DNA of 64,000 bases from an uncultured Thermoproteaceae archaeon (lineage in GTDB: Archaea; Thermoproteota; Thermoprotei; Thermoproteales; Thermocladiaceae): NCBI GenBank assembly GCA_964575955.1, contig CAZNTG010000006.1, forward strand, positions 224,001 to 288,000, in the 5' to 3' direction. The translations under genes and the position numbers were made by a program. Positions 28,376 through 54,862 of this stretch are shown here, in pieces. Within the stretch, counting starts at the first letter, position 1. The number at the start of each line of letters is the position of its first letter. A model generated the notes under the pieces. It saw nothing but the letters and a program-made list of their open reading frames with translations. It did no database searches and was not told where the DNA came from.

Positions 28376-29251
28376 CTAGTGTAGTATAAATCCTAGACAT
28401 ATAAATGTTGATGTTATACATCTAATAGCAAAGATATAGAATGGATTTCTAACTTTTAAAGAATGTAATGTTAATGGTAGTGTAATATATGTTAAAAGTA
28501 TTATTAAAGATACAGACTTCAAAATTATCAAAACTATTGGAACTAAGTATATTATGAATATGAAGATGTATAGTACATATTTAACATTTTCTAAACCTAA
28601 AACGACAGCTATAGTCTTCTTACCTAACTTCAAATCAACATCATATCTGGCAATTGCAAGCTTTGTTAAAATTATTGTTGTATACATACCATTAGCAAGA
28701 CCTGCAATTATTGAAAGTGTGATACCATATATGTTCAATGTGTTTGATAATACTATGAATGTTCCACATGTAATTAATGGTCCTGTAGCAATACCTGCAA
28801 ATATTTCACCAAAACCTCTATATCTAAGTTTAACTATTGGAGAGCTATATCCAACTCCTATAAAAACTCCTAGAAATACTATTATGAAAACTTCAATAAT
28901 AGATAACGATATTAGAAGTATTGATCCAAGAACTATAGCAATTCCTATCAATATTATTGATATATTTCTAACAAGTTTAGGATCTACATTTAAATCTAAT
29001 ATCATATTAACTCTATGGAGAGTTCTCACTTTTCTATACTCAATATCTATACCTGTAGTATAATCTCTATAATCATTATATAAGTTTACTCCTGAATGTA
29101 TCAATATTAGACATATTATAACTATTGATAACTTTATCAAGTCTACATGTCTAAATATTGAGTATGTTATTGATGCTCCTATAATTGCCGATAATATACT
29201 TGATATGAATGTTATTGGACTTAGAGCTTCTATATATTTTAATAATCTCAT
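28376..29251 (-). CDS. UbiA/MenA-family prenyltransferase
   Basis: NLYNDYRDYTTGID, YRGFGE, DLKLGKKTIAV; multi-TM. Confidence 0.8.
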   Translation of the reverse strand: MRLLKYIEALSPITFISSILSAIIGASITYSIFRHVDLIKLSIVIICLILIHSGVNLYNDYRDYTTGIDIEYRKVRTLHRVNMILDLNVDPKLVRNISIILIGIAIVLGSILLISLSIIEVFIIVFLGVFIGVGYSSPIVKLRYRGFGEIFAGIATGPLITCGTFIVLSNTLNIYGITLSIIAGLANGMYTTIILTKLAIARYDVDLKLGKKTIAVVLGLENVKYVLYIFIFIIYLVPIVLIILKSVSLIILLTYITLPLTLHSLKVRNPFYIFAIRCITSTFICLGFILH

Positions 29252-29889
29252 CTTACTCTATATACATATATTATACATGGTTTATCGTATTCTTCAGGTA
29301 TTTTATCTAGAATTTCTGTATTTATTGATATGTTTTTCACAATCTTAATAGCATATTCATCACCAAGCTTTTGTATTAAAGTTCTAGCTTTTTCAAATGA
29401 TGGCATTAATATTACAAGCATTCCAAGTTCTCTTACAAGTCTTACCATTGTTTCAATATCTTCATCATGTCCATTTACTACAGAGAAACCTCTAATATTT
29501 GGATAGTCTGTTAGTGATATCTCTGCCTCTATAGCACCTGCAGTTATTGATGATACTCCTGGAATAACTTCATAAGGTATATTATGCCTTTTCAATTCCT
29601 CTAACTCCTCTCTAAGATGTGAATATATTGTTGGATCACCATTCTTCAAATGTGCAACTACATAACCTTTCAATGCTCTATCAATAACTATCTTAATAGC
29701 TTCCTTTCTATGTCTTTTAACAATTTTAATCTTCTCAATAGCATTTTTTGCATATTTTTCAACAATTATATCAGGAACTAGATTACCATAAACAACAACT
29801 TGAGCTTTACTTAACCTATCTATAGCTCTCAATGTTAAGAGATCTGGAGCTCCAGGTCCAACACCTATAATATAGACAAAACCTGTCAC
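29248..29889 (-). CDS. cobA: Uroporphyrinogen-III C-methyltransferase (siroheme synthesis, CobA/CysG-A)
   Basis: GVGPGAPDLLTLRA, LKNGDP, VIPGVSS. Confidence 0.82.
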   Translation of the reverse strand: MTGFVYIIGVGPGAPDLLTLRAIDRLSKAQVVVYGNLVPDIIVEKYAKNAIEKIKIVKRHRKEAIKIVIDRALKGYVVAHLKNGDPTIYSHLREELEELKRHNIPYEVIPGVSSITAGAIEAEISLTDYPNIRGFSVVNGHDEDIETMVRLVRELGMLVILMPSFEKARTLIQKLGDEYAIKIVKNISINTEILDKIPEEYDKPCIIYVYRVR

Positions 29890-29965: not shown

Positions 29966-31468
29966 TTATAACTCTAAAGCCCATCCAACTAGGTCTGACA
30001 CTCCCTTACACATTAATTGTCCAGGTATGTGATATTCTATAACTACTGGGAATTGTGCTTTATCGATAGAGCATGGTGTTGTCATTATTTGTGCACCTGT
30101 CTTCCAACAGTCATATACTGATGGCCATCCAGCCCATACTCTTAGTGGTATTACATCATCTCCAAGTAGTCCACTTCCAGCACCGCAGCATAGTGTTCTA
30201 TGTTTATTATGTTCTCTTTCTCTAAATTCTTTAGCAACAGCTCTTAGAATTATTCTAGGTTCTTCAATTAGGTCTCCGGCTCTAGCTAGATTACACGGAT
30301 CGTGATATGTCACAACGTAGTCTAACTTTCTAACTTTCAACTTACCCTTCTTTATAGCCCATGCAACTAGCTGTAGGAAGTGTATTGCCTTAATACCACG
30401 TTTCTCAAGTTCAGGAACTACATAATTCTTAAATGCTCTCCAACCATGACCACACTCTCCAAATATTACAAGTTCAGCACCTATCTTCACAGCTGTCTCC
30501 ACAATTCTATTACCCTGCTTCATTAGGTGGTAATCTGATACGAATAGTCCAAAGTTGCCGATTTCAAATACTTCTGATCTAAATGTATACTTATCCTGTA
30601 GTCCAAGTGCGTACATTACTTTTACAAAGCCTTTCAATGTGTCTATGTTTGTGAATACGTCCGTTGATGATGGTAGGAATAGTATCTTAGCTTTTGGTCT
30701 ATCTAGTGGAATCTTAATATCACGACCAGTCTCCTCCTTCAACTCCTCCTCAACCCAGTCAAATACTGCTTTAATGGCTTTTGGATTTAGGAACATTTGA
30801 TTGCCTGTTAACATTAGTGATCTCACAGTATTGCCAACAAACTCGTAAACCATACCCATCTCAGCAAATATTTGACGTACTGCTCTAGTAATTTCTGCAG
30901 TATCTATACCAAATGGGCAGAAGTATGCACATCTTCTACATTCAGTACATTGGTGGAAGTATATCCAAAGTTCTTCAAGTAGTTGTTCTGTAAGTTCTTT
31001 AGCATCTACAAGCTTACTAAATAGTCTACCTGTAAGCTTATCATAGTACTTGAATATTGATCTTATGAGATCTGCTCTACCTACAGGAGAGTTATGGTAA
31101 TCTCTTGTAGCCATCCACATGTGACATTTATCAATACAGTATCCACAGTGCGTACAATTCTCGAGATATAGTCTGAGTGCTCTATTGTTTCTTAACATCT
31201 CTCTAAACCTATTTATGAAGTATCTAATTCTCTCTTCAGGACTTAGCTTAAACCATAGATCTCTAGTCTTTACAAATCCTCCAGGTATGAACTCAGCTTC
31301 TCTTAAGAATTTTTCAACAACTAGCTTTCTAGCATTAATCCACTTGCTACTTTCAGGAAACTTCTCAGCATACCATTTCTTCCACTCTTCATACTTTGGA
31401 CTCTCTGGTATTGGATCTCTCTTTAATGATGGTATTGGTGGAGGAATCTTCTTCTCAGCCATACTCAC
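29966..31468 (-). CDS. dsrK: DsrK, HdrD-like Fe-S subunit
   Basis: CTHCGYCIDKC, CTECRRCAYFCPFGIDT, ECGHGWR, HDPCN, CCGAG, PCSIDK. Confidence 0.9.
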   Translation of the reverse strand: MSMAEKKIPPPIPSLKRDPIPESPKYEEWKKWYAEKFPESSKWINARKLVVEKFLREAEFIPGGFVKTRDLWFKLSPEERIRYFINRFREMLRNNRALRLYLENCTHCGYCIDKCHMWMATRDYHNSPVGRADLIRSIFKYYDKLTGRLFSKLVDAKELTEQLLEELWIYFHQCTECRRCAYFCPFGIDTAEITRAVRQIFAEMGMVYEFVGNTVRSLMLTGNQMFLNPKAIKAVFDWVEEELKEETGRDIKIPLDRPKAKILFLPSSTDVFTNIDTLKGFVKVMYALGLQDKYTFRSEVFEIGNFGLFVSDYHLMKQGNRIVETAVKIGAELVIFGECGHGWRAFKNYVVPELEKRGIKAIHFLQLVAWAIKKGKLKVRKLDYVVTYHDPCNLARAGDLIEEPRIILRAVAKEFREREHNKHRTLCCGAGSGLLGDDVIPLRVWAGWPSVYDCWKTGAQIMTTPCSIDKAQFPVVIEYHIPGQLMCKGVSDLVGWALEL

Positions 31469-31478
31469 TCACCTAATA

Positions 31479-32480
31479 TTATCTTCTACCCTCGACTATA
31501 TCTATTGCTAGGTTAAGTGCTGTATCTTTATGTTCAAACTTGCCGTAAAGTGCTGGATTGAATGGGAACATGAACATGTGTATCATCTTACTCCAAGGTA
31601 TGTATATTAGGAATAGCTCTGCAAAGAATACATGTACAAGTTCTAGTGGGTGATATATCATCTCTAGATACATTGCCTTAATAGCATGCATTATATGTCC
31701 AGTCATTAAACCTCTAAACCACTCACCAATAAGCATAAACATCACGCTACCATACTCTCTCATAAGCTCATAGACCTGGTGGATATAAGGTGCTAATGGT
31801 CCTGTACTGTAGTGAGATTTCACATATGCTAAAACTGCAGATTCTGTAAATGATGTTGGATATGCAGTTATCTTAGCCGCAAGTCCAAATCCAAGTATTA
31901 TGAGTAGCAGGAATATTAGAAGCCAATCATCTATATAGTTAATCTTAACCTTTGTATGTGCCTGTACATATGCTCTTCTTATAGCTAAGAATATTAGACA
32001 TATAAATGCTAATGCTCCAGCACCAAGACCAAGCCAATACTTCATACTTTCAGGAACATGGAAGTACATACCTACAGCATATGCAATATTATTACCGTGG
32101 AATAGTAGTGTAGACCATATACAATAGTGGAATAGTATTAGACCAAACCAAAAACCTACAGATCTATATCCATAATTCTCCTTCAGTAATGTGTAGAATG
32201 TGAACATTCTAACAAGTATCCAACCAAGAGCTTTCCAATAACTATGAACATTTGGATATAGTGTTAATCTGTATAGACCCCAGTAAAGTCCATTAGGACC
32301 TTTAGGTGTTGCAGCCCATCTAGCAAGTCTATATATTATACCAACTATAAGTACCGCAGTTGCAAAATATGCAAATGCTACATATAGTGCACATATGAAT
32401 ACTGCAGCTCCAAGAGGAACTTTAACACTCTCAACTATTTTCCAAGCAAGCTTCCAGTATATGCTGTATGTACTATCCAT
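31479..32480 (-). CDS. dsrM: DsrM, NarI-like membrane cytochrome b
   Basis: TM helices with heme-ligand His (LFHY...LFHG; VHV...SKMIH), directly upstream of dsrK. Confidence 0.85.
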   Translation of the reverse strand: MDSTYSIYWKLAWKIVESVKVPLGAAVFICALYVAFAYFATAVLIVGIIYRLARWAATPKGPNGLYWGLYRLTLYPNVHSYWKALGWILVRMFTFYTLLKENYGYRSVGFWFGLILFHYCIWSTLLFHGNNIAYAVGMYFHVPESMKYWLGLGAGALAFICLIFLAIRRAYVQAHTKVKINYIDDWLLIFLLLIILGFGLAAKITAYPTSFTESAVLAYVKSHYSTGPLAPYIHQVYELMREYGSVMFMLIGEWFRGLMTGHIMHAIKAMYLEMIYHPLELVHVFFAELFLIYIPWSKMIHMFMFPFNPALYGKFEHKDTALNLAIDIVEGRR

Positions 32481-32650: not shown

Positions 32651-33055
32651 TTAGACACATCCAGTTGGCTTTGGTGCTCCAGCTACCTTACATGCACCTT
32701 TTGCTGGTCCGTTTGGAAATAGTTCGTGAATTCTCTTTAGGTCTGTCTTAGTTTCTCTAACTAACATTCTTATTGGTGGACAAACTCCATATGTTACATA
32801 GTACTCATGTAGATACTTAACAATCTTCCAATGCTCATCGGTCATTCTCTCTCCATACTTCTCAAACATTGTGAATAGGAACTCTGCAACAAACTCATCC
32901 CATGCCTCTGGGTTCTGCAGGAATCTGTCTTCGTCAAGTATTATCTCCTTACCTGTTTTCTTAAGTCTAAGCTTTACCCATCCTGGTGGCAAGCTTGGGT
33001 CTTGTATAACCTCATATTCAAATTCTGGTGATGGAGGTTTTGGCAATTCTGCCAT
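32651..33055 (-). CDS. dsrC: DsrC sulfur carrier
   Basis: LDEDRFL, MTDEHW, CPPIRML, LFPNGPAKGACKVAGAPKPTGCV with both C-terminal Cys. Confidence 0.93.
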   Translation of the reverse strand: MAELPKPPSPEFEYEVIQDPSLPPGWVKLRLKKTGKEIILDEDRFLQNPEAWDEFVAEFLFTMFEKYGERMTDEHWKIVKYLHEYYVTYGVCPPIRMLVRETKTDLKRIHELFPNGPAKGACKVAGAPKPTGCV

Positions 33056-33072
33056 ACCTAATCTCCGTAATC

Positions 33073-33094
33073 AATAGATACATGAGTATCTATT
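33073..33094. promoter_or_regulatory. Palindromic operator candidate in the dsrC promoter
   Basis: AATAGATAC-atga-GTATCTATT perfect 9-bp inverted repeat about 18 nt upstream of dsrC ATG, overlapping a TATA-like CTTAATA. Confidence 0.5.
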
Positions 33095-33243
33095 AAGCTT
33101 TACCCTCTGTAACTTTATGAATAATTAATGAAGACTGTATGAAATTTTCAAATCTTGATGATATTTAAGTTTTCAAAGATTTGAGAATTATTAAAGTCTG
33201 TGAGAGATTTTTAAAATATTTATCGGAAAGTGTTGTTAAGGAG

Positions 33244-34644
33244 TTATGCAAGTCCTAAAGCTTTCTTTAGAGCTTCAACATATTTCCACTTCTGATCTCT
33301 TGGTATCATTGCGAATGGTATAGCATCTTTGTAGTATGGCTCTGGTGGTGGTTCTTTTCTAATTACTAGGTCAGGTGCTGGATGTTCTACAACTTCTTTA
33401 AGGAACTTCTCCCATGTGTTTCTAATTGATAAGTCTCCAACTCTCTCTCTAACGAATGCTGTATCTGCCCACTTTGCAACAATCTTCTTCTCGACAAGGT
33501 CTAGGAACCAGTTAATTACCTTCTTCTCATTCTCTGGTGTTACTCTTATGAATGGTATTAATACTGAGCCCATCTTTGGACCAACTCTACTCTTAATTGT
33601 TCCACCTATGAGTATTGTTACACCTCTAATTCTTCCAGGTAGTATTGCTGGGTTTGCTCTAATTATACAGTTCATACACTTTACACACTTTCTACCATCA
33701 CACTTCAATTCTAGTGATTGTTCATCCCATGTTAATGCTCCTGTTGGACATGATTCAACAATCTCTTTTGGATCTACCTCTCCTGTCTTAACCATCTTTC
33801 TAAACTCTTCCTGATCTATCTCAGGTGCTCCAAGCCATGTACCAATAACTATGTAGTCTGCACCTACTAAAGCCTTTATACAGTCTAGTGGACATCCCGA
33901 TAGTTTGAACTTTATCTTATATGGGAATTGTGGATATGTTTCCCAGTCTGGGAATCTCCTACCAATCTCACCCCACCATAGTATTGTATCATAACATGCG
34001 AATGGACAGGTTGCTGGTCCTGGACAGCATGTCCACATTCTAAGTACGTCTCCTGAACCTCCAACATCTGTTGGTGTTAGTAGTCTAATAGCCATTACTA
34101 GTCTCTCAACCTTTGCTTGGTCACTCATTATGATTGGCATTGCACCTGTACCACCTCTAAGCTGGAATATGCCCCATCCAAACTTGTCAGTTATCTCACA
34201 TATAGTTCTCATTAAGCTTGTAGACATTATACCTGCTGGTGGTGAGAGTACTCTAGCATGTACCTCATAGACCTTACCTGCATATAGTATACCCCACTCC
34301 TCATACTTCTTATACTCCTCAGGTGCTCCCTCTCTAATTATATGCTCAACAGTTGCGTGGAATACTCTACCTAGAAGTCCACAGTATACTCCAGGTACTG
34401 GAGATGCACCAGTATCCCATGGAGATCTACCAATAGCTACACCAATAGCCCATGCAAGTACTGGATAGAGAGACTTCTCAGCCTCCTTAACAAATGATGG
34501 CCATGGGCCCTTCTTCATCTCCTCAATAATCTGTCTAGCCTTCTCAACAGCCTTCTTAGGATCTTTCATCTCAGGCCATACCTCTTCAGGTGATGGTGCT
34601 GATCCTGTTGGATATCCAAACCTTGATTGAACCTTCCAAGACAT
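33244..34644 (-). CDS. dsrA: Dissimilatory sulfite reductase alpha subunit
   Basis: GPWPSFV, GGSG, CPGPATCPFACYDT, FPYKIKFKLSGCPLDC, CPT...CVKCMNCI, ERVGD. Confidence 0.9.
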   Translation of the reverse strand: MSWKVQSRFGYPTGSAPSPEEVWPEMKDPKKAVEKARQIIEEMKKGPWPSFVKEAEKSLYPVLAWAIGVAIGRSPWDTGASPVPGVYCGLLGRVFHATVEHIIREGAPEEYKKYEEWGILYAGKVYEVHARVLSPPAGIMSTSLMRTICEITDKFGWGIFQLRGGTGAMPIIMSDQAKVERLVMAIRLLTPTDVGGSGDVLRMWTCCPGPATCPFACYDTILWWGEIGRRFPDWETYPQFPYKIKFKLSGCPLDCIKALVGADYIVIGTWLGAPEIDQEEFRKMVKTGEVDPKEIVESCPTGALTWDEQSLELKCDGRKCVKCMNCIIRANPAILPGRIRGVTILIGGTIKSRVGPKMGSVLIPFIRVTPENEKKVINWFLDLVEKKIVAKWADTAFVRERVGDLSIRNTWEKFLKEVVEHPAPDLVIRKEPPPEPYYKDAIPFAMIPRDQKWKYVEALKKALGLA

Positions 34645-34668
34645 CTTAGTTATCAACTATTACCAATG

Positions 34669-34719
34669 CATTTATAAATAGCTATTCTACATCAGTTGTG
34701 AAATAGCTATTTATAAATG
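34669..34719. promoter_or_regulatory. Mirror-image bidirectional promoter driving dsrA and dsrB
   Basis: Perfect 18-bp inverted repeat CATTTATAAATAGCTATT-N15-AATAGCTATTTATAAATG; each arm has TTTATAAA 23-26 nt before a start codon. Confidence 0.8.
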
Positions 34720-34740
34720 GATAACTTTAGGGTAAATTCA

Positions 34741-35991
34741 ATGACAACAACAGTGCAGTCAATACTTGACTGGCTTGCAACAGCACCACTAGACGAGCTT
34801 AGAAAACATCCACTACACCCTCAGAATAGACCAGAAAAACTTTGGAGATATTATCCACCACACTCATGGTTACCACCAATATGTTTGAGAAACTATGGTA
34901 AGTGGATTAAGAGAAGGATTATAGATCCAGGAATTATAGAAGTAACATCTAAGACAGGTGAAAAGCTATACCTTGTCAAGATTATCCTACCTGTAAGAGT
35001 TAGTACAAAGACAATGTACGAACTTCTAGATCTAGCAGATAAGTATGGTATTGGATGGATAGAAGCATCAAAGATGGGTAACCTAATAATAATGTGTGAT
35101 AGTGAGGAAAATGCAAGAGCATTAGCAAAAGAGTTGAGAGAGAAGGGATATCTAGTAGGTGGCTGGGGTAACAGACTCTGGAACATTAAGATATGTTCAA
35201 CATATATCACATGTACAACAGCAGTAATTGATGCTGTAACAGTAGAGAAAGCACTTGGAGATGTATTGATGGAATATACACAGAAAGAATTACCAGCAAA
35301 ACTCACAATTAAAGTATCAGCATGTCCAAATGCTTGTGGTGGAGGATTCGACGCTGCTGACATAGGAATTGTAGGATATCCAGCAAGTGTACCAATGATG
35401 GAAGGTTGGAGAATTAGAGTACTATGCCCACCAAGATCACTACTAGAAGCATGTCCAGTAGGAGACATAAAGATGCTTAAAGATGAGAAAGGAAGACCAA
35501 TAGGAGCAGAGATAAGAGGACAGACATGTATGGCATGTGGAAGATGTCACGACTTCTGTGACGCAATAATATACGATCCAAATGAGATTGGAGTGATGGT
35601 AATGGTTGGTGGTAAATGCGCAAACACAGGAGTAGGACCAGGAATGTCTAGAGTACTAGTACCATTCGTACCAGCAGAACCACCAAGATGGCCAACACTA
35701 GTAGCAGTAATTAAGAGAGTAGTAGATGTATGGGTATCAAATGCAAAGAAGGGTGAAAGACTAAGAGACTTCATAACGAGGATAGGATGGGACAAGTTTG
35801 TAGAATTAACAGGACTACCAAAACCAGAAGACTACATAAAGCCACTAGATAAAGCACCAGGATGGACAAGATATGGATGGCAACCACTATACCTCAGAAG
35901 AACAGATGAAAACAAGAGATACATTGGAACTAGAATTGATAATGATATGATGGCTATAAGTGCAGCACTATTCGAAGACATAATTAAGTAA
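34741..35991 (+). CDS. dsrB: Dissimilatory sulfite reductase beta subunit
   Basis: LPPICLRNYGKW, VGGWG, CSTYITCTT, LPAK, ACPNACGG, CMACGRC, VGGK, EPPRWP, ERLRDFITRIGW. Confidence 0.9.
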   Translation: MTTTVQSILDWLATAPLDELRKHPLHPQNRPEKLWRYYPPHSWLPPICLRNYGKWIKRRIIDPGIIEVTSKTGEKLYLVKIILPVRVSTKTMYELLDLADKYGIGWIEASKMGNLIIMCDSEENARALAKELREKGYLVGGWGNRLWNIKICSTYITCTTAVIDAVTVEKALGDVLMEYTQKELPAKLTIKVSACPNACGGGFDAADIGIVGYPASVPMMEGWRIRVLCPPRSLLEACPVGDIKMLKDEKGRPIGAEIRGQTCMACGRCHDFCDAIIYDPNEIGVMVMVGGKCANTGVGPGMSRVLVPFVPAEPPRWPTLVAVIKRVVDVWVSNAKKGERLRDFITRIGWDKFVELTGLPKPEDYIKPLDKAPGWTRYGWQPLYLRRTDENKRYIGTRIDNDMMAISAALFEDIIK

Positions 35992-36004
35992 GATCTAGAT
36001 ATAA

Positions 36005-36763
36005 CTATAATTCACAAATCTCAATATTTCTATCTCTAAACTTCTTAATTCTATACTTAATCTCTTCAATAGTATTTGTACAGAGATCCATAACATCAAT
36101 CTCATCCTTACCATTATACAGAAGTATCACAGCTTTAGACTTACTACCAGCAATAATTGAAAGCATTCTCAATGTAAATATTACAAAGAAATCATTAAAA
36201 GACTTTATGATAAGTCTCTCACAGTTTTTAACAATTTCAGGATCAACACCTAAAATTTTTGATATAAGTTCTACAAGTGATCTACTGTGTACAGTGTCTG
36301 CAAGTAGGTAGTACATCAGTGGTGTAAATATGTACTTTGCGGTATTTCTAAACTCATCAATATTATCAAGTTGTGATATCGTTATTCCAATTCTTTTTAA
36401 ACTCCTCGCAAACACTATCAGGTATGAGCATAATTCTTCGAATTTAGAATCTACTCTCCATATAAGCTTAATCTTATTTATAAGATATGGTGAATCTTCA
36501 ACATTTTGAGCAATACATTGAAGAAGTCCTTTAACGGTAATTCTGTGAGTATGTAGTGAATCTGACTTTAGAAAACCTAGATCGAGAAGTTTCTTAGCTT
36601 TCTTATAGGTAGTGCTAACTGCAAATCCTGCAAGCATAGAAGCTTTATATAGAGAAATACTACCATAGTAAGAATATACTCGCAAGATTGATAATTCTAT
36701 ATCATCAAGATGTCTATCAATAACTTCTGAAAGTCTTGTTACTAGCTCTTGTAGAATATCCAT
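36005..36763 (-). CDS. Winged-HTH putative transcriptional regulator in dsr cluster
   Basis: SLYKASMLAGFAVSTTYKKAKKLLDLGFL HTH followed by RITVKG wing. Confidence 0.65.
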   Translation of the reverse strand: MDILQELVTRLSEVIDRHLDDIELSILRVYSYYGSISLYKASMLAGFAVSTTYKKAKKLLDLGFLKSDSLHTHRITVKGLLQCIAQNVEDSPYLINKIKLIWRVDSKFEELCSYLIVFARSLKRIGITISQLDNIDEFRNTAKYIFTPLMYYLLADTVHSRSLVELISKILGVDPEIVKNCERLIIKSFNDFFVIFTLRMLSIIAGSKSKAVILLYNGKDEIDVMDLCTNTIEEIKYRIKKFRDRNIEICEL

Positions 36764-36788: not shown

Positions 36789-38198
36789 TTAATTTGATGA
36801 CCCTAGCAACTTGACATTAACAATATAATTAACTATGTGATAAATATGATTGTAAGAGCTAGGATGTATATGAGTATACTGTGCATATGTGTTATATTTT
36901 AGAAGTCCATCTCTACCATCACCAATACCCCTACCTCTATACAACTTTAAACAAATTTTAACATCTCTATCCTTTAGATATATCTTACTATGATGAAATT
37001 CGTGACCTCTAAATATCTTACCAGGAGAGCCTATTGGAATTCTATCAACAATTTCGGCAAGAACATAACCATGACCAACAGGTCTATTAAGCATGTATGT
37101 ACATGCTTCAAATATCTTACACATATCATAACAATCACCACCATACACAATGCAGTCTGTTAAAAACATTAGACCACCACATTCAGCATATATAAAACCA
37201 CCTTTCTCATAAAATTTATACACACTTTTCAAAAATGGTTTATTAGAACTTATATACTCAGCCCAAACTTCAGGAAAACCACCACCTATAACTAGAAGGT
37301 CTACGTCTGTAGGTATTGATGTATTTTCCATAGAGTCTAAAATATACATCTTATTTGAATAGTTTATACAAAGTTCGATAACTTCAGGATAGTAAAATGT
37401 GAATGATTTATCAATTATAATACCAATATTTATCTTCCTTAAAACATTTTCAAAAATCTCAAATTCTCCAATACATCTTAATGTCTCTGCTTCTCTAGCT
37501 ATCTTAACTATCTTATCAATATCTATGAAATCTATAACTTTTTTCAAACTATCATATATTAGATCTCTAGTACCACTTTCAAGTGTTGGTACTAGTCCTA
37601 GATGTCTATACTTGAATAATTCTTCTAACTTACTACTCTTAGGTATGTATCCCAGTATTTCAATATCTTTGAAACTTTTCTCAATTATCTTCTCAATTTT
37701 TCTATATTGAGATTCTTTTACGATATTTGTAATTACTACACCTCTAATATTCATCTTTCCATAATCTTTAAAACCTTTAACTATTGCTGCTATTGATTTA
37801 TTTATTCTTTCTGAGTCTATTACAAGTATTATTGGTGTTTTTAATATTCTTGCTATAATTTCTGTTTCTCCAATCTGTGTTTCTATGTCAGGACTATCAT
37901 ATATTCCAAATACACCTTCTATTAATGCTATATCACTATCTTTTGAATATGTTATAAATCTATTAATAATTTTTTGTGGATTTTGAAGATATGGATCTAA
38001 ATTTCTACACGGTCTTGATGTTATTGTTGAGTGGTATGTTGGATCTATGAAATCTGGACCAATTTTAAATGTCTGTACTTTCAATCCGTACTTCGATATT
38101 AATGCTAGTGCTATTGTTAATGTTGTAATTGTCTTACCTGTCTTACCTCTAGGTGCTGTGATTAGTAGTCTAGGAATGTCTACATCAAGTAGTTTCAT
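36789..38198 (-). CDS. Cobyrinate a,c-diamide synthase homolog (CbiA/CobB; by context DsrN siroheme amidase)
   Basis: GKTGKT, FKIGPDFIDP, IEGVFG, RHLGL, GGGFPE, YAECGG, GHEFH, YTHIH. Confidence 0.85.
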   Translation of the reverse strand: MKLLDVDIPRLLITAPRGKTGKTITTLTIALALISKYGLKVQTFKIGPDFIDPTYHSTITSRPCRNLDPYLQNPQKIINRFITYSKDSDIALIEGVFGIYDSPDIETQIGETEIIARILKTPIILVIDSERINKSIAAIVKGFKDYGKMNIRGVVITNIVKESQYRKIEKIIEKSFKDIEILGYIPKSSKLEELFKYRHLGLVPTLESGTRDLIYDSLKKVIDFIDIDKIVKIAREAETLRCIGEFEIFENVLRKINIGIIIDKSFTFYYPEVIELCINYSNKMYILDSMENTSIPTDVDLLVIGGGFPEVWAEYISSNKPFLKSVYKFYEKGGFIYAECGGLMFLTDCIVYGGDCYDMCKIFEACTYMLNRPVGHGYVLAEIVDRIPIGSPGKIFRGHEFHHSKIYLKDRDVKICLKLYRGRGIGDGRDGLLKYNTYAQYTHIHPSSYNHIYHIVNYIVNVKLLGSSN

Positions 38199-51328: not shown

Positions 51329-52516
51329 ATGTTGAAGAAGGAGGATATAGTAAATATCGAACTTTCAATACTTTCTCAATATTATAGGAAGAAGAATGTT
51401 GTAATTGTTAGAGGTTGGAGACAGTATGTTTGGGATATTGATGGTAATATGTATCTAGACTGTAATACTGGTTATGGTGTTGCTTTTCTAGGTCATTGTA
51501 ATGAGAAGATTGTTAAAGCAGTTATAGATCAGGTAAGTAGATTAACTATATGCTCATTAACATTTTTTAATGATGCACGTGCAAGATTTTTAAAATCCTT
51601 CTCAAGACTACTGCCTTCAAAATTTGGAAAAGTAGTTATTCAAAATAGTGGTGCTGAAGCTGTTGAAGTTGCTTTAAAAGCTGCTAGAAAGATAACTAAG
51701 AGAAGAGGAATCTTAGCATTCATAGGCTCATTCCATGGTAGAACTATGGGTGCTCTCTCAGTTACAGGTAATGAGAAGTATAGAAGACCATTTGAACCTC
51801 TAATACCTGATGTTAGATTTGCAAGATTTAACGTGGTGCACGAACTTGATAAAGTTGTTACTGAAGATCTTGCAGCTGTTATAGTGGAGCCAATACAGGG
51901 TGAGGGTGGTGTTAATCCTGCAACTAGAGACTTCTTAAGAGAGTTGAGAAGAATTACTCAAGAACGTGGTGTATTGCTAATATTTGATGAAATACAGACA
52001 GGATTTGGAAGAACAGGAAGTATATGGGCTTTCGAAAACTATGGTGTTGAACCGGACATATTTACAGCAGGTAAAGCACTTGGAGGTGGATTTCCAATTG
52101 GAGTTACAGTATTTAGTAAAGAGCTTGGAGATGTATTTGAACCTGGAGAACATGGATCAACATTTGGCGGTAATCCAGTAGTGATGGCTGCTGCAGCTGC
52201 AGCATGTGAACTACTTATTGAAGATGATGTTCCAGGAAAAGCTAAAGAGCTTGGAGAATACATAATGAAGAAGATTAGTGAAGAAATATCAACATCAAAA
52301 TACTACCTACGTGTTAAAGGTATGGGATTGATGATAGGTATAGAACTTAGAAGAGATGCAGAACCATTTGTTGATAAATTAATAAATGAGAAAGTACTAG
52401 CATTATCAGCTGGAAAGACAACATTAAGACTTCTACCACCATACTTAATAACTAGAAGAGATGTAGATGAAGAACTTATACCAGCATTAGTAAATGTTCT
52501 TGAAGTAAAGAAATGA
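51329..52516 (+). CDS. lysJ: Class III PLP aminotransferase, LysJ/ArgD ([LysW]-aminoadipate semialdehyde transaminase)
   Basis: NSGAEAVE, SFHGRT, EPIQGEGG, FDEIQTG, AGKALGGG, HGSTFGGN. Confidence 0.85.
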   Translation: MLKKEDIVNIELSILSQYYRKKNVVIVRGWRQYVWDIDGNMYLDCNTGYGVAFLGHCNEKIVKAVIDQVSRLTICSLTFFNDARARFLKSFSRLLPSKFGKVVIQNSGAEAVEVALKAARKITKRRGILAFIGSFHGRTMGALSVTGNEKYRRPFEPLIPDVRFARFNVVHELDKVVTEDLAAVIVEPIQGEGGVNPATRDFLRELRRITQERGVLLIFDEIQTGFGRTGSIWAFENYGVEPDIFTAGKALGGGFPIGVTVFSKELGDVFEPGEHGSTFGGNPVVMAAAAAACELLIEDDVPGKAKELGEYIMKKISEEISTSKYYLRVKGMGLMIGIELRRDAEPFVDKLINEKVLALSAGKTTLRLLPPYLITRRDVDEELIPALVNVLEVKK

Positions 52517-53235
52517 GTATGAACTACATAATAACAGACGAGCCAAAGAGATTAGAATATTTAATATCTAGAAAACTTGGATTTGAAATTATAAAGTTAG
52601 AAAATGCTGTACTAGATATTGAAGAATTGAAGAATCGTATAGAAAACTCCACAATACTATTAAGAATATATTCACCATACAAACTAATACCAATATCAAT
52701 AATATGTGAAAAATATGCTAAAAAAGTTATAAATAGTAGTAAACTCATAATAACATCACTAATAAGAGAATTACTATATAGAGAATTAGAGAAAAATAAT
52801 ATTCAAACACCTAGAAGATTGTACATATTTGATCTATGTAATGTATCTGACATAGCTAATAAGATTGGTAAAACTAATATGTTATTAACATTTACTAAAA
52901 CAGATATTGAAGGTGTTGTAGAAACAGCACAAGCACTTGTATCACTTATAGAACATAGATACTATATGAGTGCTGAAGATGTGAAAGTAAATTTAGTAAT
53001 TCCAAATATTGAAGATATTAAAAATATACTAGTAGTAGGAAAGGAACCTTCAATAGATATAGACATGGTTAGAAAAGTTGTAGATATACTTGGAGAAGGA
53101 ATATATACTATAACGGTAGGTAAACAGGATGGTAGAGAAGTAGTACTATATATAGATCCAGTACCAAGTATAGAAAATGATGAAGATATTGAAAAAGTTT
53201 TAGAATATTTGAAAAATATTCTAAAACTTAACTAA
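52513..53235 (+). CDS. Shortened, divergent RimK/LysX-like ATP-grasp protein
   Basis: VINS...LYRELEKNNIQTPR and LIEHR segments resemble LysX; coupled to lysJ. Confidence 0.45.
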   Translation: MSMNYIITDEPKRLEYLISRKLGFEIIKLENAVLDIEELKNRIENSTILLRIYSPYKLIPISIICEKYAKKVINSSKLIITSLIRELLYRELEKNNIQTPRRLYIFDLCNVSDIANKIGKTNMLLTFTKTDIEGVVETAQALVSLIEHRYYMSAEDVKVNLVIPNIEDIKNILVVGKEPSIDIDMVRKVVDILGEGIYTITVGKQDGREVVLYIDPVPSIENDEDIEKVLEYLKNILKLN

Positions 53236-54862
53236 CTACTCCAAGATAAATTCTAGAAACTTTACCAGTCTTGTAGTTTACAGCTATACTTACAGGATAG
53301 CCCTTCTCTAACATACAGTACTTATGTGGTGGTATTGGCAATATCTTAACACTATACTTCTCTACACCAAACACTTTACAATTTGTAACTTTTCCACTAA
53401 CTACACTACAGTCAACAGTTACCTTATCTCCTGTAGGTATTTCAAATCCAAATAATACCATTATACATACTGGTTTCCTGTCGTGGGTTACTGCTATTGA
53501 TATTGCTCTTATAGGTGATGTACAGTTATTTATTAATGTAAACTTAATCTCACTCTCGCTAAGTTTAACATTAGCTACATGTACTACACATGTCTTAGCT
53601 GCCTCAACTTTAGGAGGTGATGTCTTAAATGTGTATGTTGTTGCAATATACATCATCTCACTTAGTAGTACTGAGGATAGGAGTGGTTCAGTGCTTGAGT
53701 ATAGTGGTATTGACAGTTCTACTGCCTCTAGTGGAGTTATCTCAGTCTTTTTCAGATGTTCTAATCCTTCCAACTCACTTAAAAGCTCTGTATTTACATA
53801 GTTTGAATATTCTTTATAACCTTCAACTTCCTCTTTCATAGTAACATTAACTTTGAAGAATCCTGTATTTAGATTTCTAACATTTAGATACATGTATAGT
53901 ACTCTTCCACCTTCTGTAATACAGAATTTAGAACTTACATACCACTTATCAAGACCCATCATTGTTAAGAAGATTGAAATACTTGCTAAAGTTCTCATAA
54001 TAGATTCAATCCTACTTTCAGAAATATTCATCTCCAATGTCTTAGTAATATCATTAATTATATCTCTAATTAATGTCTTATTTGACAATATCTTAGATAT
54101 ATCTACAATCTCATTAAGATTATATAGATAGCATTTAGCACCTCCAATCTCTCTAACACCAATATATGTTACATTCTTTAGAAATAGCTCAGTTATATAT
54201 TTGATAATTAATTTACTAAGCTTCTCCATGCTTCTCACCTTGAATGCGAGTGGAACATACTGCATACCATATATCTTTGGTGTATATACTACACATTTAG
54301 ACATCTTTGTAGTATTCCTAAACTTTCCACTCACTATAGTGAATATTCCTGAAATACAAATCTCAGAGCTTCCATTAATTCTTTCAACCATAAGCACTTT
54401 AAAATCTTCACACTTCATAATTCCAGATACATTTTGAACTTTTGAATTTTGAATAATCTTTCCATTAATTACAGCTGTCAAATTTCCAATATATGTATAT
54501 ACTATCATTCCTGTCTTATTTTTTAATAATCCCCATTTGACATCTTTCATATATACATTCTCTACAAAATAAATCTCAGAAGGACCAGATAGACTCTCCT
54601 TCATCTTCTTTACATACAATATGAATGATGTCTTAATACCAGAGTATTCTCTATAGATATTTGTAACATTCTTACTAACACTCTTCATCAATAAATTAAC
54701 TAAGCTTAGAGCTTTCCTACCTACAACAGTAGTAGTCTTCTTATACGGTTTATACATGTAGAAGTAATAATATAATGATCCAGCAATAATTACAGCTATA
54801 ACTATGGCGATTACTGCTGCTAAAATAGACTTCTTCATAGAAATATTGTCACTATTTACCAC
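53228..54862 (-). CDS. Membrane-anchored extracellular hypothetical protein
   Basis: N-terminal TM anchor, many paired Cys, pilin-like C-terminal beta domain. Confidence 0.55.
   Translation of the reverse strand: MVNSDNISMKKSILAAVIAIVIAVIIAGSLYYYFYMYKPYKKTTTVVGRKALSLVNLLMKSVSKNVTNIYREYSGIKTSFILYVKKMKESLSGPSEIYFVENVYMKDVKWGLLKNKTGMIVYTYIGNLTAVINGKIIQNSKVQNVSGIMKCEDFKVLMVERINGSSEICISGIFTIVSGKFRNTTKMSKCVVYTPKIYGMQYVPLAFKVRSMEKLSKLIIKYITELFLKNVTYIGVREIGGAKCYLYNLNEIVDISKILSNKTLIRDIINDITKTLEMNISESRIESIMRTLASISIFLTMMGLDKWYVSSKFCITEGGRVLYMYLNVRNLNTGFFKVNVTMKEEVEGYKEYSNYVNTELLSELEGLEHLKKTEITPLEAVELSIPLYSSTEPLLSSVLLSEMMYIATTYTFKTSPPKVEAAKTCVVHVANVKLSESEIKFTLINNCTSPIRAISIAVTHDRKPVCIMVLFGFEIPTGDKVTVDCSVVSGKVTNCKVFGVEKYSVKILPIPPHKYCMLEKGYPVSIAVNYKTGKVSRIYLGVVS

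Follow-up and report, generated by a model that had tools for sequence, protein, structure and literature searches.

The window analysed here is a stretch of 64,000 nucleotides from an uncultured Thermoproteaceae archaeon, represented solely by a metagenome-assembled genome (assembly GCA_964575955.1, contig CAZNTG010000006.1, positions 224,001 to 288,000 of the forward strand). It contains dsrA and dsrB, which encode the two subunits of a dissimilatory-type sulfite reductase and form a single-copy pair in the 1.52-Mb genome (1,521,267 bases in 15 contigs). The two genes lie head-to-head on opposite strands, with 96 bp between their ATG codons at 34644 and 34741. The spacer between them carries a perfect inverted repeat with a TATA-like box in each arm and a dyad at its centre. 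The features are as follows:

33244..34644, minus strand: dsrA, 466 aa from the ATG at 34644; alpha subunit of a dissimilatory-type sulfite reductase
34741..35991, plus strand: dsrB, 416 aa from the ATG at 34741; beta subunit
34645..34740: spacer between the dsrA and dsrB ATG codons, interpreted as a bidirectional promoter
34669..34686: left arm of the perfect 18-nt inverted repeat, the exact reverse complement of the right arm
34671..34678, minus strand: TATA-like box TTTATAAA, 26 nt before ATG 34644; putative promoter element of dsrA
34683..34705: central dyad and putative operator, reading TATTCTACAT, CAG, TTGTGAAATA; family consensus TATTYCACAT-N3-ATGTGRAATA
34702..34719: right arm of the perfect 18-nt inverted repeat, separated from the left arm by 15 nt
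34710..34717, plus strand: TATA-like box TTTATAAA, 23 nt before ATG 34741; putative promoter element of dsrB

That the two genes diverge across about 96 bp had been claimed in the original prediction, which was made from the DNA letters alone, and it holds for the open reading frames (ORFs), their profile matches and the starts of their orthologues. The minus-strand ORF has the dsrA model TIGR02064 as its best NCBIfam match (E 1.9e-85, 287 bits, against 108 bits for the dsrB model), and the plus-strand ORF best matches the dsrB model TIGR02066 (E 9.4e-100, 333.9 bits, against 112 bits for the dsrA model). Both scores lie under the curated cut-offs (392.85 and 341.5 bits, respectively), as expected for divergent archaeal forms. 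The Pfam domain NIR_SIR is found in both proteins and spans cysteine-rich stretches, picked out by eye in the translations, which may hold the cysteine clusters of the siroheme-[4Fe-4S] centre and the inserted ferredoxin domain. DsrAB is predicted to be an alpha2beta2 dissimilatory sulfite reductase of the reductive archaeal type, built from an alpha and a beta paralogue that each match their own subunit model best. The N-termini of orthologues placed the starts at ATG 34644 (MSWK...) for dsrA and ATG 34741 for dsrB, the ORF caller having proposed TTG 34656 and ATG 34717, respectively. The in-frame ATG at 34717 sits within the TATA arm. No in-frame ATG is present at the matching place in L004, L005 and L007, and an upstream in-frame ATG of dsrB is found in L006 and in three g2 loci (G, C, L and g numbers denote the genomes, contigs, loci and genera used for comparison).

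The inverted repeat agrees in every detail with the original prediction: its 18-nt arms are perfect across 34669-34719 and hold identical octamers 26 and 23 nt before the two starts. It is the longest perfect inverted repeat in the genome with a loop of at most 40 nt, and perfect inverted repeats with such a loop and arms of at least 14 nt number only four in the 1,521,267 bases. A repeat search lengthens the arms to 26 nt at 88% match (34666-34691 and 34697-34722). When the spacer is read as two 25-nt arms around a 3-nt centre, the arms match at 21 of 25 positions, compared with a background of 6.8 +/- 2.3 (maximum 16) in 20,000 random genome windows. The 18-nt repeat comprises the TATA box, an adjoining short spacer and the outer four bases of each half-site of the dyad. 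Part of its symmetry is built in, because TTTATAAA and AATAGCTATT are each self-complementary and the arms are therefore direct repeats too. Searching with the outer palindrome returned 11 copies, and those outside the spacer look coding by eye.

Thirteen distinct orthologous spacers (five from g1, one from g3, four from g2 and three from g4) were aligned. The original prediction had centred the symmetry on the TATA arms and missed the central dyad, which is the best-conserved part of the spacer. Apart from the start codons and the spacer's own position 94, all columns invariant in the alignment fall within its own positions 31-64; the left TATA box accounts for three of them, the left half-site for five and the right half-site for seven. 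The 25-30 nt from each TATA box to the ATG vary freely across spacers. Centred on the dyad, every spacer reads as a TATA-like box, about 5 nt, TATTYCACAT, three further nucleotides (two in g4), ATGTGRAATA, about 5 nt and a second TATA-like box. A TATA-like octamer stands at the matching place in 13 of 13 spacers, and on either side of the dyad the TATA box is 19-26 nt from the ATG in every genus.

Across the 13 spacers, 11-25 of the 25 arm positions match, against the same background (6.8 +/- 2.3, maximum 16), and a lack of symmetry in orthologous loci, which had been named as grounds for dropping the original claim, was not found. Cells in paired arms are complementary in 72.8% of cases, versus 35.5-42.2% when the partner is slid by 1-3 columns. 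Changes on both sides affect 13 of the 25 pairs and amount to 39 cells versus 19.7 +/- 3.5 in shuffles (none of 500 reaching 39), counts that come from four genera only and overstate independence. The mirrored changes fall mostly in the short stretch separating TATA box from half-site, a stretch that varies from genus to genus and is mirrored within g1 and g4. The extreme case is G005 (L006), in which the arms are perfect over 25 nt around a 3-nt centre, with mirrored substitutions. Genus g2 is equally head-to-head, yet its outer arms match at only 11-14 of 25 positions and its TATA boxes differ, the half-sites being kept. The idea that the split layout calls for two identical promoters thus fails in g2. 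Equal promoters that stand in for operon coupling and balance the two subunits through equimolar transcripts, as the original prediction proposed, would be a reasonable interpretation for g1, though one not needed for the layout itself.

We propose that the spacer is a compact bidirectional archaeal promoter with one dyad-symmetric operator at its centre (34683-34705). The head-to-head layout and its symmetry are real; a bidirectional promoter with a shared operator is quite probable, and the two taken jointly are given a probability of roughly 0.7. In archaea the TATA box usually lies about 26 nt before the start site, and leaderless mRNAs are common in this phylum. The TATA-to-ATG spacing of 19-26 nt agrees with the usual distance from TATA box to start. 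Each TATA box would direct a start about 26 nt downstream, no more than about 5 nt from the ATG, and archaeal promoter geometry predicts that both mRNAs are leaderless. Bound at the centre, a single regulator dimer would have an initiation complex on either side and could switch both subunit genes together, the likely regulator being the putative winged-helix protein encoded by orf252 (36005-36763), acting as a homodimer. The dyad is upstream of both TATA boxes, abutting the position contacted by TFB, and because of this placement both activation and repression are possible, with activation slightly favoured. The arrangement probably arose when dsrA was inverted in the common ancestor of four related genera, which would have left it at the head of the leftward dsr(C)MK genes.

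The head-to-head layout is shared by relatives of the window genome. A DsrA search of 41 related genomes gave a match in 29, of which 13 are head-to-head: G000, G003, G005 and G006 in g1 (the genus of the window genome), G008 in g3, G007, G011, G014, G017 and G022 in g2, and G009, G012 and G015 in g4. One of these, G007, is a one-contig genome of 2,077,567 bases. Fifteen are tandem (g5, g6, g8 and the g2 genome G020), and the remaining one is undecided, G018 having a broken dsrA only. In this last genome (g4, 47% complete) the dsrA match at C35:12036-13345 is in pieces with internal TGA and TAG stops; gene decay or an error of assembly may explain this. A metagenome scan, from which 80 loci were kept, returned nine head-to-head loci, all with at least 48% identity to the DsrB of the window, and 55 tandem loci, all with at most 38% identity; the other 16 were uninformative. 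The nine head-to-head spacers repeat those of the genomes and contribute no new independent sequences.

The tandem order holds in each of the more distant relatives examined, which makes head-to-head the derived state. In a paralogue-rooted tree from a quick search with 44 DsrA and DsrB rows, tandem g5 and g6 form one clade, with Shimodaira-Hasegawa-like approximate likelihood ratio test (SH-aLRT) values of 100 in the A half and 97 in the B half. The head-to-head genera divide into g1 with g3 and g2 with g4, which make up one clade in the B half (SH-aLRT 82) and are left unresolved in the A half. Constraining the 14 head-to-head DsrA rows to group together is not rejected, the constrained tree being 0.85 log-likelihood units better (p of the approximately unbiased test 0.60). 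The gene-order survey and phylogeny that the original prediction had proposed thus find the layout in four genera and are compatible with one inversion as its origin, with the reservation that the A half does not settle the branching. Gene order in the relatives is as follows:

g5: dsrK and dsrM leftwards, then dsrA and dsrB rightwards
g2 and g4: dsrK, dsrM and dsrA leftwards, dsrB rightwards
g1 and g3: dsrK, dsrM, dsrC and dsrA leftwards, dsrB rightwards

The g5 order would become that of g2 and g4 if dsrA alone were inverted along with its upstream region, which suggests how the layout may have arisen. The DsrAB of g5, which belongs to the family of the window genome, groups with that of g6, from another family, and not with g1-g4; this hints at either a transfer or two old dsr lineages within the family. 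According to passages of a 2026 paper (PMC12948486), reductive archaeal DsrAB is divided into clades, two of which occur in this family. These clades agree with the two lineages, and the same passages do not mention orientation. Two other arrangements were observed. In some g6 loci (L015 2724-2727; also L016-L018) the stop of dsrA and the start of dsrB share 4 nt, which suggests translational coupling, the opposite solution to that of the window. In the g8 genome G038 (C1:382857-387546), two tandem dsrA-dsrB pairs stand back to back, their dsrA genes facing away from each other across about 200 nt; this too is a divergent layout, in this case one of whole pairs.

The locus holds a normal archaeal Dsr gene set in all but the orientation of dsrA and dsrB. 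The neighbouring genes are:

32651..33055, minus strand: dsrC, on the strand of dsrA and 188 nt downstream of it; TIGR03342 at 105.8 bits (above cut-off), Pfam DsrC
31479..32480, minus strand: dsrM-like membrane subunit (NarI-like); Pfam Nitrate_red_gam at 30.7 bits, a weak DsrM match, its position beside dsrK conserved
29966..31468, minus strand: dsrK; NF045796 DsrK, E 1.2e-104, 350.5 bits (cut-off 400)
29248..29889, minus strand: uroporphyrinogen-III methyltransferase-like gene (first step to siroheme); TP_methylase at 128 bits
36005..36763, minus strand: orf252, candidate regulator, 252 aa, winged-helix-like, from a narrow family linked to dsr, convergent with dsrB
36789..38198, minus strand: dsrN-like a,c-diamide synthase (cobB family); TIGR00379 at 391.5 bits (above cut-off), Pfam CbiA and GATase_3

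The minus-strand order after dsrA is dsrC, dsrM, dsrK and the uroporphyrinogen methyltransferase gene, followed by MenA-like and UbiD-like genes. The companion genes dsrC and dsrMK are present, and synteny is kept across relatives. On the other side, the stop of orf252 lies 14 nt from that of dsrB, which is a standalone gene, and the dsrN-like gene precedes orf252 on the strand of the latter. Another part of the same contig holds an aprA gene (1003.5 bits, above cut-off). The 188-nt gap between dsrA and dsrC (33056-33243, minus strand) contains a 9-nt inverted repeat and a GGAG motif 11 nt before the dsrC ATG; dsrC seems to differ from dsrA and dsrB in having a leader that carries a ribosome-binding site.

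Whether orf252 encodes the regulator of the dyad is an even call, the assignment being that of a candidate put forward by genomic linkage. Its position is conserved in g1 and g3, and a 268-aa ORF shortly after dsrK in the g5 genome G010 is a homologue (pairwise E 8e-11). A ten-member profile detects full-length relatives in all g5 genomes, where homologues again neighbour dsr clusters, and N-terminal matches adjoining the dsr clusters of g2, g6 and g8. Homologues of orf252 have sub-threshold matches to the Pfam families HTH_24, IclR, F-93 WHD and TrmB. The AlphaFold model (predicted local distance difference test score, pLDDT, 81.2; predicted template modelling score 0.77) has the helix-helix-helix-strand-strand topology of a winged helix at residues 21-75, where pLDDT exceeds 90. 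In a Foldseek search of the PDB all matches are weak (E 0.014-0.09); winged-helix regulators of the MarR, SarS, IclR and MntR/IdeR types make up about two thirds of the 36 rows listed. Homodimer prediction gave a median of 0.42 over three runs against 0.00 for the best control. This is a model score and not a measurement; among solved structures, 20 of 30 homodimers attain it, as does 1 of 23 single chains. At least 63% of contacts are shared between the runs, which have a partner pLDDT of at least 80 and place the interface at residues 139-250 with the N-terminal domains free. The model thus fits a dimer with two free N-terminal DNA-binding domains.

Other results count against the assignment. 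The protein has no Pfam or NCBIfam match, and no Foldseek match to the PDB reaches an E of 0.001 or better. In g2, g4, g6 and g8 only the N-terminal 100-120 residues match orf252, and members of its family occur in four g8 genomes in which DsrA has no match; the family is not strictly tied to dsr. A large protein collection yielded seven matches to orf252, one of them the genome's own protein. In favour of the assignment, two paralogues are present in G010, one with its stop 9 nt from the dyad of cobA-dsrN and the other about 150 nt from that of apr. These proteins (L030:2996-3802 and L041:1527-2321) have a cysteine-rich C-terminal stretch that the g1 proteins lack, and which may be a metal or redox-sensing site. 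In G005, orf252 had appeared to be a pseudogene, which is ruled out, as the three reported stops lie beyond an intact, shorter ORF of 212 aa.

The 16-letter dyad pattern was searched for at up to 2 mismatches in four closed genomes, with the reversed pattern as control. In G010 (2.37 Mb) there are four matches (control 2), all four of which lie within 1960215-1975984, a 15.8-kb region around dsrAB. They stand upstream of a membrane protein and AprB operon, of cobA-dsrN, of a Pyr_redox_2 and DUF1641 pair, and of dsrC. A weaker copy is found between dsrM and its divergent neighbour, and most of the G010 sites share the short spacing between the half-site and a TATA-like box after it. In G007 there are three matches (control 3), the best of which, with 1 mismatch, is the spacer between dsrA and dsrB; one of the two with 2 mismatches precedes cobA-dsrN, an operon of a methyltransferase and a dsrN-like gene. 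With a matrix derived from the sites, 34683-34705 is the top dyad of the window genome, a circular result in that the site was itself used in building the matrix. We tentatively suggest that the dyad and an orf252-type protein could be an undescribed regulator-operator pair for a regulon of dsrAB, dsrC, dsrMK, aprBA and cobA-dsrN in the family, perhaps the order. In the head-to-head genera, one central dimer would then fire two leaderless transcripts, replacing operon coupling as the means of subunit balance. If true, this would be a natural minimal switch with one operator and two promoters.

Besides the limited independence of the covariation counts, several observations weigh against a shared operator beneath the head-to-head layout. 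In this genome the inner half-sites TATTCTACAT and TTGTGAAATA are the least perfect part of the repeat, with 2 mismatches to the dyad pattern, whereas the outer 18 nt are perfect. Matrix and pattern searches of this genome found no second convincing dyad site: the next-best matrix match, C9:16847, falls within a 766-aa ORF, and nothing convincing lies upstream of aprA (best score 11.7) or dsrN. Only three of the eight matches in G013 (control 1) and one of the four in G016 (control 0) are near dsr. A loose pattern with 3 mismatches is not enriched genome-wide over its control (37 against 35 in G000, 30 against 33 in G007 and 30 against 65 in G008). As to the layout, G020 has the only tandem pair in g2, a g5-like one on a short contig (C110:63-1912) from which the other five g2 genomes differ; it could stem from faulty binning, from gene transfer or from a second type of dsr. 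The lack of a second clear site and of enrichment, together with the symmetry that self-complementary TTTATAAA and AATAGCTATT provide for free, would suit two independent constitutive TATA promoters without a shared regulator, alike through descent and an AT-rich, self-complementary TATA consensus, the central conservation being incidental. We consider this improbable: over four genera the most invariant columns are those of the half-sites and not the TATA boxes, the right half-site leading; the dyad recurs before other dsr, apr and siroheme genes, with four out of four clustered in G010; and the dsrC and dsrM sites were found even though they had been left out of the construction of the scoring matrix. 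The symmetry might instead be kept at the level of the DNA by homogenisation, through hairpin- or cruciform-templated repair or template switching, with alike promoters as a by-product. This would account for the mirrored substitutions of G005, which reach beyond half-site and TATA box, for the mirrored stretch in g1 and g4 (pairs 37-41 with 65-69), and for g1 arms that match better within a genome (mean 21.0 of 25) than do left and right arms across genomes (17.9 of 25), a sample of five distinct, related spacers. Such a process is compatible with the operator and may add to the perfect symmetry of g1; as the explanation in its own right it is unlikely. The half-sites are kept in g2 despite asymmetric outer arms, the imperfect part of the stem adjoins the loop in the window, which is the wrong way round for hairpin-templated correction, and the same half-site stands at unrelated promoters with a TATA box on one side only, which a local process cannot explain.

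Two further explanations do away with the promoter or with the layout itself. The repeat might encode a structured RNA, such as a hairpin, small RNA or terminator, since a hairpin of -16.7 kcal/mol at 37 C is obtained when the 59-nt stretch is folded as a single DNA strand (DNA energies for 75-85 C were discarded for odd behaviour, being more negative at 85 C than at 75 C). This is very improbable: both genes run away from the repeat, which places it upstream of the two predicted start sites, the TATA boxes lie inside the arms, the outer arms of g2 do not pair, and an Rfam scan of 34300-35100 gave only two chance-level matches, the best at 19.2 bits against a gathering score of 60. A false inversion caused by the palindrome in assembly, with dsrA and dsrB truly in tandem, is less probable still and, as far as present data go, refuted. 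Palindromes do disturb assembly graphs, and three contigs of close relatives (L023 1-111, L024 1-111 and L051 1-203) end at most a few bases from the dsrA start codon or some tens of bases beyond it, just after the repeat. The same orientation recurs, however, in 13 genomes of four genera, including a closed one, and in nine metagenome contigs from other projects, and on long contigs dsrA is co-oriented with dsrC, dsrM and dsrK. A 16.5-kb contig from a second assembly, run X1, bridges 33200-35555 with no differences and no alternative joint, although X1 is possibly the source sample and in that case not independent data. Contigs from run X2 cover only 9 of 30 depth bins, all at the two ends, and a search for RNA runs containing 33200-36000 returned none. 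Misassembly had been named in the original prediction as what would undo it, and the recurrence and the bridging contig argue against it. In G001 and G002, which belong to the genus of the window genome, the orf252 gene is present and DsrA has no match; the palindrome or strain variation may break assemblies there, so that dsrA is lost from bins.

With these alternatives weighed, a shared operator between divergent promoters remains the preferred reading, and it can be set beside known systems. In archaea, divergent promoters with a regulator site between two TATA boxes are known for winged-helix or Lrp-type regulators in Thermococcales and Sulfolobales. The spacer resembles them in its two opposite-strand TATA boxes, the dyad between these and the candidate winged-helix dimer encoded nearby. 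It differs in that the genes are two subunits of one obligate heterotetramer and not a regulator and its target, and in that the whole unit is 96 bp long and nearly mirror-symmetric. Sulfate-reduction genes of Desulfovibrio are controlled by Rex, likewise a dimeric regulator with a dyad operator before sulfate-respiration genes and with similar half-site letters. The half-sites of Rex face the other way, and orf252 has no match to a nucleotide-binding or any other Pfam domain.

The closest comparison is with the canonical dsrAB operon of sulfate and sulfite reducers and sulfur oxidisers, which encodes the same alpha/beta enzyme family and has the same companions (dsrC, dsrMK, a dsrN-like gene and a siroheme methyltransferase, with aprA in the genome). 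There, dsrA is followed by dsrB on one strand, as it is in all 55 informative distant metagenome loci and in g5 and g6. The order dsrA-then-dsrB in one operon is absent from the window, which is a trait of gene organisation and not of the enzyme; because the genes are on opposite strands, their co-transcription and translational coupling are impossible here. Passages of Mueller et al. 2015 (PMC4351914) describe dsrA as preceding dsrB in one operon and state that common dsrAB primers do not bind archaeal-type dsrAB. The expectation that PCR from dsrA to dsrB would miss this organism is hence right as geometry and moot in practice. The original prediction also mentioned reports of non-tandem dsrA and dsrB in some basal archaeal lineages, which the literature searched did not yield. 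In the parts of the literature searched, as text only (including PMC10504309, PMC7174415, PMC4351914, PMC10591310 and PMC12948486, whose figures or supplements may show the layout), there is no description of divergent dsrA and dsrB. Nor do the parts searched, which include PMC3189178, describe an archaeal dsr regulator or operator or this dyad motif. The layout itself is visible in the public closed genome G007; what appears to be undescribed is that the layout is shared by a whole clade and comes with a conserved symmetric promoter and operator.

The pair dsrAB serves as the marker of microbial sulfite and sulfate respiration, and primers, annotation pipelines and evolutionary studies assume a fixed A-then-B operon. 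Both operon-based detection and the logic of amplicons running from dsrA to dsrB fail for a whole clade of hot-spring archaea. Gene order provides a simple shared derived character that separates the two DsrAB lineages in one family. For regulation, the dyad and the linked winged-helix gene are concrete candidates in a field, archaeal sulfur respiration, where regulation appears undescribed in the literature searched. The mirrored 96-bp promoter would also be a compact natural template for studying how one regulator acts on two initiation complexes, and how subunits are balanced without an operon.

One further inverted repeat was noted in the window, at 53195-53229. With 16-nt arms and a 3-nt loop it is the second-longest perfect one in the genome; it lies at the 3' overlap of two convergent ORFs, 52513-53235 on the plus strand and 53228-54862 on the minus strand, and may form a terminator-like hairpin that works in both directions.

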